A DNA stretch of 64,000 nt from a virus. Lineage: Duplodnaviria > Caudoviricetes. The notes beneath the pieces were generated by a model. The model did not search any database. It saw nothing but the letters and a program-made list of their open reading frames with translations, and was not told the origin of the DNA. Location: positions 64,001 to 128,000 of the IMG/VR virus record IMGVR_UViG_3300012983_000033; one strand, given 5' to 3'. Numbering within the stretch: the first letter of the stretch is position 1; each line of letters opens with the position of its first letter. Both the position numbers and the translations under genes were made by a program. Shown in pieces: positions 19,746-37,485 of this stretch.

Positions 19746-20132
19746 TTATTCAAGTTCAGTTGTCTTTATATAAGATGTTGCAATATTACCACTTTTTATT
19801 TCAACATATCTTTCAGTAGCAATTTCAACTTTTACCTGCCTCATATCACTCTCAAATCGTACTTCTGCGGCGTACCAATAATTATTCTCTTGACATTCTG
19901 TCAAACCTTCCTCCCAATAGATCGCAAATAATCTTTCGCCGCCGTCCGTAGGAATTGATATAATACTTGTCGCGGATCTTGTCCAACGATGATTTTCATC
20001 AAATTCTTCTACGATAATTCTATTATTGCATAAAACTTCCCTCAACATAAATTCAGGAATATACTCATTATTATCATAAAGTCCAAGAAATTCGGTATTA
20101 TAATCTCTCATATTAACCTCTACATCCAACAA
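19746..20132 (-). CDS. Hypothetical protein
   Basis: HRW and W..GLTECQEN motifs. Confidence 0.65.
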   Translation of the reverse strand: MLDVEVNMRDYNTEFLGLYDNNEYIPEFMLREVLCNNRIIVEEFDENHRWTRSATSIISIPTDGGERLFAIYWEEGLTECQENNYWYAAEVRFESDMRQVKVEIATERYVEIKSGNIATSYIKTTELE

Positions 20133-20856
20133 ATTTTATTTCAGTACAGTCGTCATAAATTTCAATAATATCATCATATATAAACCGCACATTTTCATTA
20201 TATAAAGTTAAATTTAAATCGTGATGATAGTGACCAGTAATCCACATTTTAAAGTCTATATTATAAAATAAATCTTCAAGAAGTTCACCTGAAGGAGTGG
20301 CTTCAAAAGTATGGAATACCTGTTTTACTACGGTATTTGGAAGGGAATGAGAGATGATATAGTCGATACTATTGCCGACAGTAGCAAGATTGCGATTTGC
20401 ATTTTCAATATCAGAAGGAAGAATTGTTTCCTGCGGCCACCAGCTCACATTCTCTGTACGCCATTCTTTGTCGTGGCTATCTGCTCCGCCCATACAAAGG
20501 ATTTTTAAGTCATCAAATTTCAAAATTTCACCACGAAGAATATGGTATACAGAATCAGAAATTTGATGTGCTTTTGCACCACAAAATTCTGTGATAGGAT
20601 ATGCATTAAGGCGAAGATGATTTTCGTGATTCCCGTCAATAAAAACTGTTGTCCACGGCGCAACTTCATCAAGCCATTTTAAATACCATTTTTCTTCACC
20701 GTCAGGCTCATTTGACCAAATAAAGCCAAAGTCACCTGCAATAATCAGTATATCGGACTTGTTAAACGCATTTTTAAACTTTCTGCGAAAGTCTACGAGT
20801 TTATCAAAGTCAATAGTACCGTGAGTATCGCCAGTAACTAATATCTTACTCATCAT
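20113..20856 (-). CDS. Calcineurin-like metallophosphoesterase
   Basis: GDTHG, AGDFG, DGNHEN, SHS, GHYH motifs. Confidence 0.9.
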   Translation of the reverse strand: MMSKILVTGDTHGTIDFDKLVDFRRKFKNAFNKSDILIIAGDFGFIWSNEPDGEEKWYLKWLDEVAPWTTVFIDGNHENHLRLNAYPITEFCGAKAHQISDSVYHILRGEILKFDDLKILCMGGADSHDKEWRTENVSWWPQETILPSDIENANRNLATVGNSIDYIISHSLPNTVVKQVFHTFEATPSGELLEDLFYNIDFKMWITGHYHHDLNLTLYNENVRFIYDDIIEIYDDCTEIKFVGCRG

Positions 20857-22015
20857 CTTCCACCTCCATTTCTTTTTTTATTCGTTCTTTTATTCTTAAC
20901 ATAATAGTTTTTTCTGTTAAATTATTCATATAATCATTTATATTATTTTCTCTATGGTCATAAGCCCATATTGAAAAATTAAAACCGTCTTTTGTTAAGC
21001 CTGCTGAATTAAGAGCATATACATAATTTTTTCTTGGCATCCAGCAAAGATGACGTACTTCACAGAATTGCTCCCAAAAGTGGTCTTTGATATCTTCGTA
21101 TGCCGCGATGATAAGTTCCATTTTTGCTCTATGCATTGGTGCATAAGCAAGGAAGTCATCGACTTTATCCTCACGAATAAGACGGACAGCTGTTCTCAAA
21201 CCAAGTTTACCATTATTTGTAGCGTGCGCGGCGATGAGATATTCTGGTGATTTGATTTTAATGCGGTTATGATTCGCATCGACAACAACCATACCCTCTT
21301 CGTCTTTTGTCATTTGTTCTGCGACATCAATACAATCTTCAAGAGAAGATAAATAAAATCTCTTTGGTTGCTCAACTCCAAATTCCCTCCATACAGGATC
21401 GAACTCATAATACTCTCCATAGAGAATATTATCTCTTTGACCAAGATAATAGAGAGTTGTGTGGTCATAATGGATTGTTACTTGGCTTTCTGGTGAAACC
21501 AATTCAAACATATAGGTGTAATGTTCGTCAAGTTCACGACAGAAAGAAAGCCAATTACAACCAAGAGCACGCTCAACTAAATTACCAAAAGTCAATCCTT
21601 CTATTGAGTTTGACACAGGCGCCTCGAAAGCGTCAATAGAGTTATTAGTTGATAAATGCCAACCTTCGTAGTTGTGCCAGAACTTGATAAGCGAACCGTC
21701 AATTTTTTCATTAACAAATGCACTACACCAATCAATTTCTGCGGCGTTTGGATCTCCATAGTTAAAGAACTTATCGAAAGGATAACAAACAATACTCCAC
21801 TGACCGCTTAATCCTTTTTGCACAATTATGCCACGACACGCCTGACATAAAGGTAAAGACATATCAGATTCAAGCTGATTATACTTGAAAAGGTAATAGT
21901 TACCTTTCTGACGAACTTCAATATTATAAGGCGGTTCCTGTATTAACTTAACCCATTCGTCATTAGGATGCTCATTGGCAAAGTCAATAAAAGCATCAAT
22001 TATTCTTTTCTTCAT
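20846..22015 (-). CDS. RNA ligase (T4 Rnl1-like)
   Basis: CRG, PFDKFFN, EKIDGSL, FELVSP, EGMVV, RIKIKS..Y motifs. Confidence 0.88.
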   Translation of the reverse strand: MKKRIIDAFIDFANEHPNDEWVKLIQEPPYNIEVRQKGNYYLFKYNQLESDMSLPLCQACRGIIVQKGLSGQWSIVCYPFDKFFNYGDPNAAEIDWCSAFVNEKIDGSLIKFWHNYEGWHLSTNNSIDAFEAPVSNSIEGLTFGNLVERALGCNWLSFCRELDEHYTYMFELVSPESQVTIHYDHTTLYYLGQRDNILYGEYYEFDPVWREFGVEQPKRFYLSSLEDCIDVAEQMTKDEEGMVVVDANHNRIKIKSPEYLIAAHATNNGKLGLRTAVRLIREDKVDDFLAYAPMHRAKMELIIAAYEDIKDHFWEQFCEVRHLCWMPRKNYVYALNSAGLTKDGFNFSIWAYDHRENNINDYMNNLTEKTIMLRIKERIKKEMEVEDDE

Positions 22016-22073: not shown

Positions 22074-23004
22074 TTAATGCGCCGCCATATCGCATTTATG
22101 AATAATATCAAGTTCCGCGCCCAGTCCTGTTTTCTTATAAAACTTCTCAAGATTTTCGGGTGAACGGAAGAAATGCTCCATATGGAACTGAATAAGATTT
22201 GCAACGATAAGACGCTTATAATTTCTTACTTCATTAAAGTAAATTTCAGGATGTGTCATAAGATAGATATAAGCAGAATAATTCTGATGACCATAGTAGT
22301 GGGCTTCTTTTGTGGGTTCGCCTTTTGAGTTTGTGAATACTTTTGTAAAAGGCTTTCCAATATCGTGATAGCGAATTGCTTCAGTAAGTAATTCAATATC
22401 AACATCATGTCCACAACTATAATTTACTCCAAGATGAAGCAAAGCCATATCTATATGATCGCTCACTGTTTCAGTTGAATGATTATGATTATCATTTTTT
22501 ATTTTATCACAAAGTTCAATATATTTTTCAGTTTTTTCTTCAAGACAAGTATTATCCCAAAGAATAAGGATATTATCCCAACCTTCGTATTCAAAAGGAC
22601 ACTGGAAACTACGAAGTTGTTTTTCAATTACTTCATTAGGGACTTTACGCTCTCTATTTTTCATTCTTTCTTTTATAACTTGCGGCGGTGTGATAATTAC
22701 TATGCATTCTTTTTCGCAGTTAATATGCTGAATCTGTTTTAAGAAGCCTTCACGACGACGAGCTGATAAGTTGGTTGCATCGAACACAACCCATTCACCA
22801 TCTAATAAGCCTTTTTTTATGCGGCGGTGTGCTTCCTGAAAAACTTTCTGCGGGTCTTTCTGCTCATTTTCATCGCCCCAAAGTTCACCACGAATAGCAT
22901 CAGTAGACACAATAATAGCACCCATTTGTGCTAAATCTTTTGCTAAAGTTGATTTACCACAACCAGCGCTAAGATACACCAACCATCATAGTTAGTGTGC
23001 TCAT
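22074..23004 (-). CDS. Polynucleotide kinase (AAA_33) fused to HD domain; 5' end carries a 7-nt frame disruption
   Basis: GCGKST, STD.IR, FDATNL..RR, HDIGK, D..AH motifs; ATG 23004 MSTLTMMVGV is out of frame with AGCGKS. Confidence 0.75.
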
Positions 23005-23005
23005 T

Positions 23006-23950
23006 TTACATCACCTCTTCTTTCATAATATACTTACTGCTATCTAACAGCAAGTCTTCAATTTCTAATGTTTGTAACTTTGTATATGGAATTCTGATTA
23101 ATGGTATCTTGTTTTCTCTACACCACTCATTTTTTATGGAATCTCGCCTTTGATTTTCTTTAAGGCTTTCAATACCTCCATTGTCAAACTAACGTGTGGA
23201 CTCAAAATGCTAAATTCCATCAAATTCAATTAAATAATCAATTGTATTGTTCTTTAAAATTGCAAAGTCAAAAGCATAGAATTTACCACTTTCACTTTTT
23301 AAGTTTTCAAAAGTTGCTTGTCTGCAAAAACTGATATTAAATTCGGATAGTAACTTTGCTATGATTGCTTCTCCCTTTGAATTCATACAACCACAAGAAG
23401 CAACCTTACCACGTTTTAAATCAGAAGTAGATACTATATGTTTTCCACCACAATCGCATTCGCAAAACCAATATCGAATTCCCTTAGGACGAAGAAAAGT
23501 CTCTTCTTTAGTAGCCCTTCGTATTACGGTTAATTTAGTAAATTTTTGTCCTATTAAATCTTCATTATGCTCTTCATTCCATTTTTCTATGGTTGCACTT
23601 GCTCTATCTAAATTATAACATCCACAAGATTTAGTATTACCAGACTTCAAACTTTTTGTTGTTACTGAAATAATATTTCCGCAATCGCACTAACAAAGCC
23701 ATCTAATTCCATTCTTATCTTTTTTAGTTAAATCTCTTTTTAATACGACAAGTCTACCAAACCGCATATTCTTTTCTATTCCAGATTTAGAACAAGGGCA
23801 CTATCCGCCGTTTTTCTTTTCTGGAACTATATTTGCAGTTTTATAAGTTCGTTCCAATCCACATTTTTGACATCTTGCCTACCAAGTGCCTTTACCTATA
23901 TAATCTTCAATAAGATAATCTCCATATTGAAGTCCCTTAAAATTTTTCAT
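23006..23950 (-). CDS. Homing-endonuclease-like protein (C.CDCG repeats plus C-terminal Vsr/DUF559-like nuclease), 5 in-frame TAG
   Basis: WLC(TAG)CDCGN, WFCECDCGG, SKGE, FDF, IEFDGI(TAG)H, LIRIPY motifs; ends TAA. Confidence 0.85.
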
Positions 23951-24040
23951 TTTACTCACCTCTACTTGTAAGTAAAAAACTCAATCATAGAATCCACGTT
24001 TTTAGGAATAAGTCTTGCGACACCGACCAACATTGTAAAT

Positions 24041-24439
24041 TTATTCAAGTAACTCACCTCCACAACTTTCTATAATTTCATTTAATTCATCTTTTATAGA
24101 TTCAAGCAAAGCTTTCGGAGTATGCCAACCTCTTCTATTTTTATACTCCCACATATATAAACCAAGTTCTGAATCGAGGTCTATACCAGTTGTATCATAG
24201 TCTTCATACTGCATTGCGGCAAGGAAAATTTCAAGGGCGCCCCTTGATTTAAAAACAACAATCTCACAATCATCAAGATTTGAAGTAAGTCCGTTCTTAT
24301 CGACCATACGAAGTTCATCTGCCTTGCAGAATAAATCAAGCTCATAATTAAGAGCATCTTCGTAATCACCAAATTCCTTGCCGTCCGCGGTAATGTAAAC
24401 TGTCATTACTGATTTAACTTCTTTAACTGTTCTTTTCAT
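24041..24439 (-). CDS. Hypothetical protein
   Basis: YITADGKEF motif. Confidence 0.6.
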   Translation of the reverse strand: MKRTVKEVKSVMTVYITADGKEFGDYEDALNYELDLFCKADELRMVDKNGLTSNLDDCEIVVFKSRGALEIFLAAMQYEDYDTTGIDLDSELGLYMWEYKNRRGWHTPKALLESIKDELNEIIESCGGELLE

Positions 24440-24453
24440 ATCATAGGCTCCTT

Positions 24454-25029
24454 TTAAATATAATATTTTTCCCACAAATATAAAATTTCATCAAGTGATT
24501 GCGGTGCATAATCATATCCACGAATCATACAACCAACATTATACATACGACAAGGCTTATCATAAAGTACTTCCATTTCATACGCAACCTGACGCATCAT
24601 ATTCCATTCAAAACTCGTGTGAACGTGACCATAAAGATGAATTGCACCATAATAGTGACGATTAAAACAAGGAATAGGATAGTGACTCAATACAAGATAA
24701 TCATCACCATACTGAAGTTCCTTATAAGGAGTGATTTCTGCAAAAAGTTCACGAAACTCTTTATTCTTGAGATACTGTTTGTCGTGATTACCAATGCAAA
24801 GATTTTTCTTACCATTAAGACGCTTAAAGATTTCAATAGTCTTTGTAACATTGTGCCAACTTACATCACCAAGAATCCAAACCTCATCATCGGGTCCAAC
24901 TTTTTCATTCCACTGTTTAATAAGGTATTCATCGTGTTCTTCAATACTCTTAAATTCTCTATTGTCATAAGCAAGACAATTTTTATGACCAAAATGAAGG
25001 TCAGAAATAAAATACATCATATATATCAA
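24454..25029 (-). CDS. Metallophosphoesterase
   Basis: SDLHFGH, LGD, GNHD, HYP, HLYGHVH, NVG motifs. Confidence 0.9.
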   Translation of the reverse strand: MIYMMYFISDLHFGHKNCLAYDNREFKSIEEHDEYLIKQWNEKVGPDDEVWILGDVSWHNVTKTIEIFKRLNGKKNLCIGNHDKQYLKNKEFRELFAEITPYKELQYGDDYLVLSHYPIPCFNRHYYGAIHLYGHVHTSFEWNMMRQVAYEMEVLYDKPCRMYNVGCMIRGYDYAPQSLDEILYLWEKYYI

Positions 25030-31353: not shown

Positions 31354-31443
31354 TGGCAGCCCCGTAGGGATTCGAACCCTAACTAACGCCCTCAGCAGGC
31401 CACAGATTTAGAGTCTGCTGTGCTACCATTACACCACGGGGCA
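31354..31443 (-). tRNA. Amber suppressor tRNA(CTA), Gln-like body, long variable arm
   Basis: GCAGA-CT CTA AA-TCTGT; D-arm identical to that of tRNA-Gln; T-arm TAGGG-TTCGAAT-CCCTA; G73-CCA. Confidence 0.9.
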
Positions 31444-37408: not shown

Positions 37409-37485
37409 TGGTGGCGGAGGTAGGACTTGAACCTACGACCTTCGGGTTATTGAGCCCGACGAGCTACCAACTGCTCTACTCCGCG
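37409..37485 (-). tRNA. Initiator-type tRNA with 8-nt anticodon loop (CTCAATAA)
   Basis: fMet body CGCGGAGTAGAGCAGTTGGTAGCTCG, TCGGG/CCCGA stem, unpaired 1:72. Confidence 0.8.

Follow-up and report, generated by a model that had tools for sequence, protein, structure and literature searches.

A mobile homing endonuclease cassette within the Walker A codons of a phage pnk gene and its possible circumvention by a stop-hop

A homing endonuclease cassette interrupts pnk

The window analysed here, a 64,000-nt stretch (positions 64,001 to 128,000) of IMG/VR record IMGVR_UViG_3300012983_000033, derives from a phage whose 139.7-kb genome is complete and bears terminal repeats, and contains a pnk gene whose Walker A codons are separated by an endonuclease gene; all genes in the pnk region are oriented along the minus strand. 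The insert (24015-22968) is very probably a mobile homing endonuclease cassette that has homed into these codons and carries its own N-terminus. This N-terminus is followed by an amber codon and is out of frame with the kinase body. Some form of recoding at this stop is considered probable, and a true 7-nt hop, with translation from ATG 23004, is put forward with modest confidence as the best single model for the synthesis of Pnk.

On the upstream side of the insert, a remnant of the native pnk start (24061-24016) comprises a Shine-Dalgarno (SD) sequence (GGAGGTGAG, 24061-24053), the start codon TTG 24048 and 11 codons for MNKFTMLVGVA (24048-24016), after which the frame continues through unrelated sequence to a TAG (23964-23962). 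On the downstream side, the Pnk body (22964-22074), consisting of a P-loop kinase domain with the motif GCGKS (AAA_33) and an HD phosphohydrolase domain (Pfam), is intact to its stop codon; GCT GGT TGT GGT AAA TCA lies in the +1 frame relative to ATG 23004 and is followed by an open frame, 297 codons in all, to 22074. Between the two, a second ribosome-binding site and ATG 23004 precede another candidate N-terminus, which runs into TAG-C ahead of the out-of-frame body. These features had been described in an earlier note on this DNA and all of its sequence statements hold, including that a GxxGxGKS loop is regained on deletion of 22969-24019 (1051 nt) or of any 7 nt surrounding the TAG, and that almost no room exists outside the endonuclease open reading frame (ORF), i.e. 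69 nt on the 5' side (24019-23951) and 37 nt on the 3' side (23005-22969).

The comparison with endonuclease-free relatives that had been suggested was performed, and the closest uninterrupted Pnk was found to be P0001 (encoded by L001), a protein of 307 amino acids (aa) with 95-96% identity. It begins with MNKFTMLVGVAGCGKS, which equals the upstream piece of the window joined to the pnk body. The cassette-free target of the L001 type is GGTGTCGCAGGTTGTGGTAAG. Relative to L001, the window exhibits a clean insertion with ~4% divergence on both flanks, and the native remnant equals L001 up to GTC GCA, with no differences over the 58 nt leading to the left junction. The pnk bodies of the two are 96% identical, with a ratio of non-synonymous to synonymous divergence (dN/dS) of 0.11, and seven of their 50 differences fall within the first 33 nt after the proposed landing codon (22953-22932; see below), against a background of 4%. 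Such a cluster of differences downstream of an insert is typical of a co-conversion tract. Two marks of a free-standing homing endonuclease gene (HEG), namely presence or absence between near-identical phages and apparent co-conversion of the flank, were found at this site.

Furthermore, relatives of the endonuclease with 66-77% identity occupy the same pnk site in other loci (L002-5, L006-8, L009, L010, L011-12, L013-14 and L015-16). The pnk bodies of these cassette-bearing loci (L002-16) are 47-83% identical to one another, each being intact over 292-300 codons, and at least eight diverged pnk alleles carry the cassette, all with intact bodies. This organization, 7-nt interruption included, was also found in assemblies made independently from other samples, which argues against an assembly indel, the artefact that the earlier note had considered. 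Database proteins that start with MWPSAGSGKS or are cut to 285-291 aa (P0019, P0034, P0055, P0084, P0094, P0098, P0101, P0103 and P0107) represent gene-caller artefacts of cassette-bearing pnk genes, and indicate at least five further cassette carriers.

The left junction was shown to vary by lineage, with the remnant extending as far as GCN GGT T in five lineages, GTT in L015 and GCA in the window. Since this junction is variable between lineages, the piece starting at TTG 24048 is regarded as a leftover of the invaded pnk gene. Two candidate N-termini had been recognized previously, and both are present; what had been missed is that the second is that of the mobile element and the first is the leftover of the invaded gene.

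Exact-pattern scans of IMG/VR and the JGI metagenomes for the conserved 3' block of the cassette gave no matches, and none of the endonuclease-homologue loci inspected (80 from IMG/VR, with 32-44% identity, and 80 from metagenomes) adjoins an interrupted pnk gene. The 20 IMG/VR pnk loci examined were all uninterrupted, and a P-loop-specific scan of endonuclease-homologue loci retrieved only L019 and L076. Dating of the invasions from dN/dS of the bodies was found to be impossible, as dS is saturated and the similarities of cassettes and bodies are incongruent.

The 5' leader of the cassette (24015-23951), through which the remnant frame runs to its TAG, is AT-rich and homologous to the leaders of other cassettes; its first ~20 nt vary by lineage, while a block (CTACTTATAAGTAGAGGTGAG) is ~96% conserved. 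The leader also contains the endonuclease SD and, abutting it, a near-palindrome (ACTTACAAGT, 23957-23976, minus strand). This palindrome is imperfect in the window, perfect over 14 nt in L006 (CTACTTATAAGTAG, L006:2478-2500) and ~96% conserved, and it may serve as an operator or as a translational hairpin. The end of the L010 contig corresponds to an assembly fold-back on the palindrome.

The cassette encodes a conserved replacement N-terminus

The most conserved block of the cassette (23040-22976) encompasses the C-terminal codons of the endonuclease, the SD GAGGTGA (23017-23011), ATG 23004, the N-terminal codons and a 10-bp hairpin, with the SD and ATG overlapping the end of the endonuclease gene. 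In class I cassettes (defined by their sites below), this 3' end, SD-ATGAGCACACTAACTATGATGGTTGGTGT, exhibits 93-99% nucleotide identity across lineages and is the most conserved part of the element, even though the endonuclease genes of these lineages have diverged to dS values of 0.5 to >2. In the window, it encodes the replacement N-terminus MSTLTMMVGVS (23004-22972), in which the final codon, TCT (22974-22972), is the putative take-off codon. The changes observed between lineages (AGC/AGT, GTG/GTA and GCC/GCT) are synonymous in the ATG frame; in that of the body, they would alter an amino acid or introduce a TAG. MSTLTMMVGVA fits the N-terminal consensus of the Pnk family, as exemplified by the native proteins P0054 (MSTFTMMVGIAGSGKS) and P0075 (MPTLTMMVGVAGSGKS). 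The N-terminus starting at ATG 23004 belongs to the mobile cassette; gap, endonuclease gene and N-terminus behave as one element, SD-ATG-MSTLTMMVGV having moved into pnk alleles that are 47-83% identical.

The hairpin (22998-22976, minus strand) ends one nt ahead of the take-off codon and has a minimum free energy (MFE) of -10.9 kcal/mol. MFE values of -8 to -13.6 kcal/mol were obtained for 12 pnk cassettes of the three classes, compared with a mean of -4 kcal/mol for 28 native pnk N-termini, the samples not all being independent. All pnk cassettes possess a hairpin of 7-11 bp, and 0-6 nt separate the end of its 3' arm from the take-off codon; it is formed by different sequences in each class, whereas the hairpin of native pnk N-termini is weak or absent. 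Small hairpins of 3-8 bp also span the stop site. A sigma-70-type promoter within the conserved block was considered as well and was not supported by a scan of that block.

Matching codons flank a conserved stop

The coding gap of the window (22971-22968) consists of the amber codon TAG (22971-22969) and a spacer base, C (22968), and is followed by GCT (22967-22965), the proposed landing codon. Every cassette has a stop (TAG, TGA or TAA) at this position, followed by 0 or 1 nt. Class I sites read GCC-TAG-T-GCT, GCT-TAG-T-GCC or GCC-TAG-T-GCC. In L017 (class II), MSPKLIMLVGIS is followed by TCT-TGA-A-TCT GGT TCA GGA AAA, while class III sites are in frame, with ...MLIGLP and then CCT-TAA-CCA GGA in L019 and L200, and ...MMVGLP and then CCT-TGA-CCA GGG in L201/202. 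The endonucleases of these distant cassettes (L017 and class III) are 48-59% identical. The flanking codons co-vary as Ala/Ala, Ser/Ser and Pro/Pro, and the stop, while changing in identity, stays in place. A same-tRNA match of the take-off codon to the landing codon was observed in six class I lineages, in L017 (TCT/TCT) and in L019, L200 and L201 (CCT/CCA); in the window and in L015, two of the three bases match. Skipping from the first to the second codon copy results in a canonical G-x-[ASP]-G-x-G-K-S in all cases, and this loop length is present in every N-terminus showing the motif among the top 120 homologues, barring gene-caller artefacts such as MWPSAGSGKS.

The class III loci L019, L200 and L201 are particularly informative, as their endonuclease gene is free-standing with no pnk fragment upstream, and no start codon is present from the stop to the P-loop; the endonuclease gene of L202 is likewise intergenic, without a piece of pnk ahead of it. 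Splicing to an upstream exon is therefore impossible at these loci and does not represent the general solution; the class III kinase appears to be reachable only through the stop. None of the 12 or more cassette-bearing bodies was found to be frameshifted, the sole internal stop being a TAG in L019 that is read as Gln recoding. A generic scan for duplicated codons around a stop produced many chance matches, and is uninformative without a P-loop anchor.

A comparable arrangement was observed in a gene for a RecD/Dda-like helicase (L076:60-110, IMGVR_UViG_3300028048_000073), in which GCC-TAA-G-GCG lies within the Walker A codons (VISGYA / GTGKST) and constitutes the same 7-nt device. No endonuclease gene is located between the helicase halves, and an endonuclease gene of the same family (ORF 1207-2238) is situated directly downstream. 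The relatives L071, L038 and L064 encode an uninterrupted GYAGSGKST or GYAGTGKST. The helicase device suggests that the putative stop-hop module is of some generality.

A model for translation across the stop

In the proposed hop, Pnk translation would start at ATG 23004 and continue until the amber codon occupies the A site, at which point the peptidyl-tRNA would leave the take-off codon TCT. The mRNA would slip by 7 nt, the tRNA would re-pair at the landing codon GCT, and decoding would resume at GGT 22964. The resulting product, MSTLTMMVGVS-GCGKS..., would possess a canonical P-loop without a single extra residue, with MSTLTMMVGVSGCGK as the predicted peptide. The forward slip may be powered by the hairpin as it refolds in the wake of the ribosome. 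By breaking the endonuclease's own target, the gap of 7 nt would spare the carrier from re-cutting, as in T4 MobA/gene 60. The TTG 24048 start would be non-functional for Pnk and may act as a leader ORF for the endonuclease. A ribosomal hop over the amber codon was among the explanations offered by the earlier note, and is the one now favoured on account of the duplicated codons around the stop in three classes, the conserved cassette N-terminus and the 5' hairpin. More speculatively, since the endonuclease needs five amber readings and the hop needs an amber codon that is unread, a suppressor tRNA could act as a switch from Pnk to endonuclease, with hopping and Pnk synthesis occurring before the suppressor accumulates, and endonuclease synthesis afterwards.

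Several observations weigh against this model. The window (TCT-TAG-C-GCT) and L015 (GCC-TAG-T-GTC) are class I exceptions without a codon match; in the window, UCU (Ser) and GCU (Ala) are mismatched at the first base, and re-pairing would be of the two-out-of-three type or the slippage structure-driven. The nascent peptide comprises just 11 residues, and an exit-tunnel signal of the gene 60 type therefore cannot exist. Synthetic stop-hops, as described by Weiss in 1987, are said to have been ~1% efficient. Moreover, the matched codons could partly be a by-product of insertion, through codon duplication. The similarities of cassettes and pnk bodies are incongruent, and the invasions may therefore be recent, in which case intact bodies are no proof of function after invasion. 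Finally, a +1 frameshift would be another way of restoring the frame in classes I and II. With these points taken into account, a wider proposal is advanced tentatively, as one that is slightly more likely to be wrong than right: a homing endonuclease family of the PD-(D/E)xK type would target Walker A codons of phages and protect its carrier by a minimal, efficiently bypassed stop-hop module (a duplicated codon, a stop and 0-1 nt, with a hairpin before them). Such a module would represent the first natural utilized stop-hop and the shortest programmed bypass, would operate without a nascent-peptide signal, and would be switchable by a suppressor tRNA in amber-recoded phages.

Alternative explanations

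The cassette may simply have knocked out a dispensable pnk gene while spreading by homing drive, the intact bodies then reflecting the recency of invasion. This explanation, which we regard as unlikely, fits the horizontal spread implied by the incongruent cassette and body similarities, the coexistence of a HEG-free relative with 96% identity, the mismatched take-off and landing pair of the window and the truncated or aberrant products that are all gene callers yield. It is at odds, however, with the retention of the SD, the ATG and the N-terminal half of the P-loop (MSTLTMMVGVA, MSPKLIMLVGIS, MTNFVMLIGLP and MSSTLYMMVGLP) down to 48-59% endonuclease identity, with a stop that changes its identity yet keeps duplicated codons on either side, and with the absence of frameshifts from 12 or more bodies combined with synonymous variation of the N-terminus.

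Rather improbable is a +1 frameshift without a hop at UCU-UAG-C (GCY-UAG-U in relatives), from which a product ...GVSSAGCGKS, with two extra residues before the P-loop, would arise (predicted peptide MSTLTMMVGVSSAGCGK). An A-site stop after an Ala or Ser codon recalls the +1 sites of Ty3 (GCG-AGU-U) and antizyme (UCC-UGA-U); no codon match is required, which suits TCT/GCT in the window, and the class I product A-S-A-G-S-G-K-S still satisfies [AG]x4GK[ST]. Frameshifting cannot, however, account for the in-frame class III sites (CCT-TAA/TGA-CCA) or for the constant codon duplication. In the window and in class II, it would also make the first Walker residue a non-canonical Ser, with a longer spacing that is present in no native homologue, and the P-site codons are without +1 re-pairing potential.

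RNA splicing, by a group I-like or other intron, would remove 24019-22969 and join the native exon 1 to the body, yielding MNKFTMLVGVAGCGKS (predicted peptide MNKFTMLVGVAGCGK). The remnant start is indeed intact and in register, the remnants of L002 and L004 differ by conservative changes only, and a U before the 5' junction and a G ending the insert are found in the window (T 24020 and G 22969) as well as in L002, L006, L009, L011, L013 and L015 (checked by hand). The U/G rule carries little weight, as it follows trivially from an NTN codon (Val/Ile/Met) and TAG. The compact intron envisaged in the earlier note is very improbable: no intron or ribozyme family, group I and II introns included, was matched in a scan of 22700-24300 with Rfam 15 at E<=10 or in seven related cassette loci at E<=1, the Rfam group I model being of low sensitivity for phage introns with large ORF inserts. 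Moreover, the 69 and 37 nt outside the ORF fall short of the ~200 nt of structured RNA that a group I intron would need outside of, or compatible with, the ORF, and class III cassettes have no upstream exon. Splicing would also leave the conserved module of SD, ATG, N-terminus and stop without a role, and L076 has the same 7-nt device with nothing inserted to splice. The complementarity noted previously between the junction sequences (CGCAAGA and TCTTAGCG) is present in the window and, in an unscored comparison, looks absent from other lineages with a different 5' junction.

The least credible of the alternatives for Pnk expression is a start in the body frame at TTG 22982 or GTG 22979 (MVYLSAGCGKS), possibly by re-initiation after the UAG of the 11-codon upstream ORF. 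Termination-reinitiation over ~10 nt is known in bacteria; the body frame is open from TTG 22982, and some native homologues are called from an equivalent position (P0012, MMVGVAGSGKS). Against such a start, no SD is suitably spaced from it, the residues V-Y/W-L/P-S lack conservation and depart from the canonical motif (its first Walker residue would be Leu or Pro), the variation is non-synonymous in the body frame, and the in-frame class III sites make it impossible there, while the codon duplication is left unexplained. The TAG that L013 has in the body frame is a weaker counterpoint, as none of the called genes of L013, L006 and L011 ends in TAG and these phages may read it as sense. An RNA cut-and-ligate event, likewise raised previously, was set aside, the gene neighbourhood being the sole point in its favour.

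The endonuclease gene and amber recoding

The homing endonuclease gene (23950-23006, minus strand) is a 945-nt ORF encoding 314 aa, which is open only if five in-frame TAG codons are read as sense, here as Gln. The deduced protein combines a series of zinc-finger-like CxCxCG repeats with a DUF2726/PD-(D/E)xK-like nuclease domain, the DUF2726 match being weak (Pfam). The PHROG families that it matches carry the annotations HNH, homing or intron-encoded endonuclease, two of them 'HNH endonuclease', whereas no Pfam HNH family match was obtained for the nuclease domain; a sequence search of the PDB returned no matches. The endonuclease is a member of a very large family and is under purifying selection (dN/dS of 0.08-0.19 in all lineage pairs, with dS of 0.5 to >2), and the motifs of its catalytic region are invariant among relatives.

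The TAG within DGI*HF of the window aligns with an invariant Gln in relatives (I246 Q247 H248), which argues that TAG is Gln in the source phage. A gene for an amber-suppressor tRNA (cta, 90 nt) is located at 31354-31443 (minus strand), and a scan of the whole 139.7-kb genome for further interruption sites revealed only ordinary in-frame TAG codons for Gln. The phage of L019 also appears to be amber-recoded, as its pnk body (L019:2724-3521) contains one in-frame TAG and the neighbouring genes are never TAG-terminated. The interruption stop of L019 is TAA, a true stop under amber recoding; in class I cassettes, the stop is TAG, also where the phage is recoded.

Relation to known systems

Programmed bypassing has for decades been known mainly from T4 gene 60 and its homologues and from yeast mitochondrial elements. 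In the MobA/gene 60 system, an endonuclease is combined with bypass and with an N-terminal extension that is carried on the insert and includes a homology region; take-off and landing codons are paired, with possible wobble at the third base, and a stop (UAG or UGA) directly follows take-off (Manning and Atkins, bioRxiv 10.1101/2022.08.31.505936). The 5' stem-loop is stronger than in parental genomes, and insertion has occurred repeatedly in diverged alleles (bioRxiv 10.1101/2022.08.31.505936). The gap guards the T4 carrier against self-cleavage while leaving the conserved motif free of extra residues, and is 50 nt long, with 20 nt in the clade where it is shortest.

Similarly, the pnk cassette is an endonuclease cassette in a conserved coding site, with an extension in which the disrupted residues are encoded anew, a gap, a stop and a 5' stem-loop, and both systems have inserted repeatedly in diverged alleles, with HEG-free near-identical relatives. 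A stop at take-off is present in the window and in every relative, and the 5' stem-loop is likewise stronger than its parental counterpart. Conversely, the nuclease is DUF2726/PD-(D/E)xK-like with zinc-finger-like repeats, whereas MobA is an HNH endonuclease; the target is the Walker A codons of pnk rather than a topoisomerase gene; and the gap measures 3-4 nt, for a shift of 6-7 nt, instead of 50 or 20 nt. The nascent peptide of 11-12 aa permits no tunnel signal, there is no UUCG take-off stem-loop, and the upstream fragment, a stub of 11 codons, is of no use, in contrast to a functional split subunit. For the pnk gap, bypass is a prediction from sequence.

Synthetic stop-hops with matched codons around a stop work in Escherichia coli, 9 nt then specifying one amino acid (Weiss et al., per PMC5009743), and according to a 2016 review no natural in-frame stop-hop was known (PMC5009743). 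Class III sites (CCU-UAA-CCA) have exactly this arrangement, to which a single spacer base is added in classes I and II; the synthetic sites are engineered and of low efficiency, whereas the arrangement described here is a conserved feature of mobile elements found in nature. With group I introns, as represented by T4 td/I-TevI, the cassette shares an endonuclease ORF in a conserved coding site, presence/absence polymorphism and flank co-conversion. It differs in having neither a detectable ribozyme core nor room for one, in carrying its own translation signals and a replacement N-terminus, and in the existence of related copies without an upstream exon. In nrdA of phage Aeh1, the free-standing endonuclease MobE has produced a split gene, both halves of which are functional and assemble. 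As in that case, a free-standing HEG inside an ORF gives the pieces new termini; here, in contrast, the upstream piece is 11 codons long and the downstream gene needs recoding.

If the proposed hop is correct, the pnk cassette would be a second, unrelated combination of endonuclease and bypass, with a gap of 3-4 nt, and a convergent solution to the problem of breaking one's own target inside an indispensable motif, with no residues added. Its natural variants (with three different stops, three codon pairs, and in-frame as well as +1 arrangements) would constitute a compact system to define the minimal requirements for hopping. In practical terms, interrupted P-loop genes in phage metagenomes may be mis-scored as pseudogenes, given that gene callers return MWPSAGSGKS or 285-291-aa forms.

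Neighbouring genes and further observations

Downstream of the pnk body, genes for an Rnl1-type RNA ligase and then a metallophosphoesterase were identified. No TAG read-through is needed for the pnk body, the RNA ligase gene (20846-22015), the phosphoesterase genes (20113-20856 and 24454-25029) or the ORF at 24041-24475. ARAGORN predicted a tRNA with a four-base anticodon (caat) and an 8-nt anticodon loop at 37409-37485 (minus strand); this tRNA was considered as a factor at the pnk site and rejected as irrelevant, since the codon AUUG is not present there. A second short ORF, encoding 138 aa, is located at 43385-43717 of the window on the plus strand (G000:C1:107385-107717), and its product is 37% identical to the endonuclease's nuclease domain.

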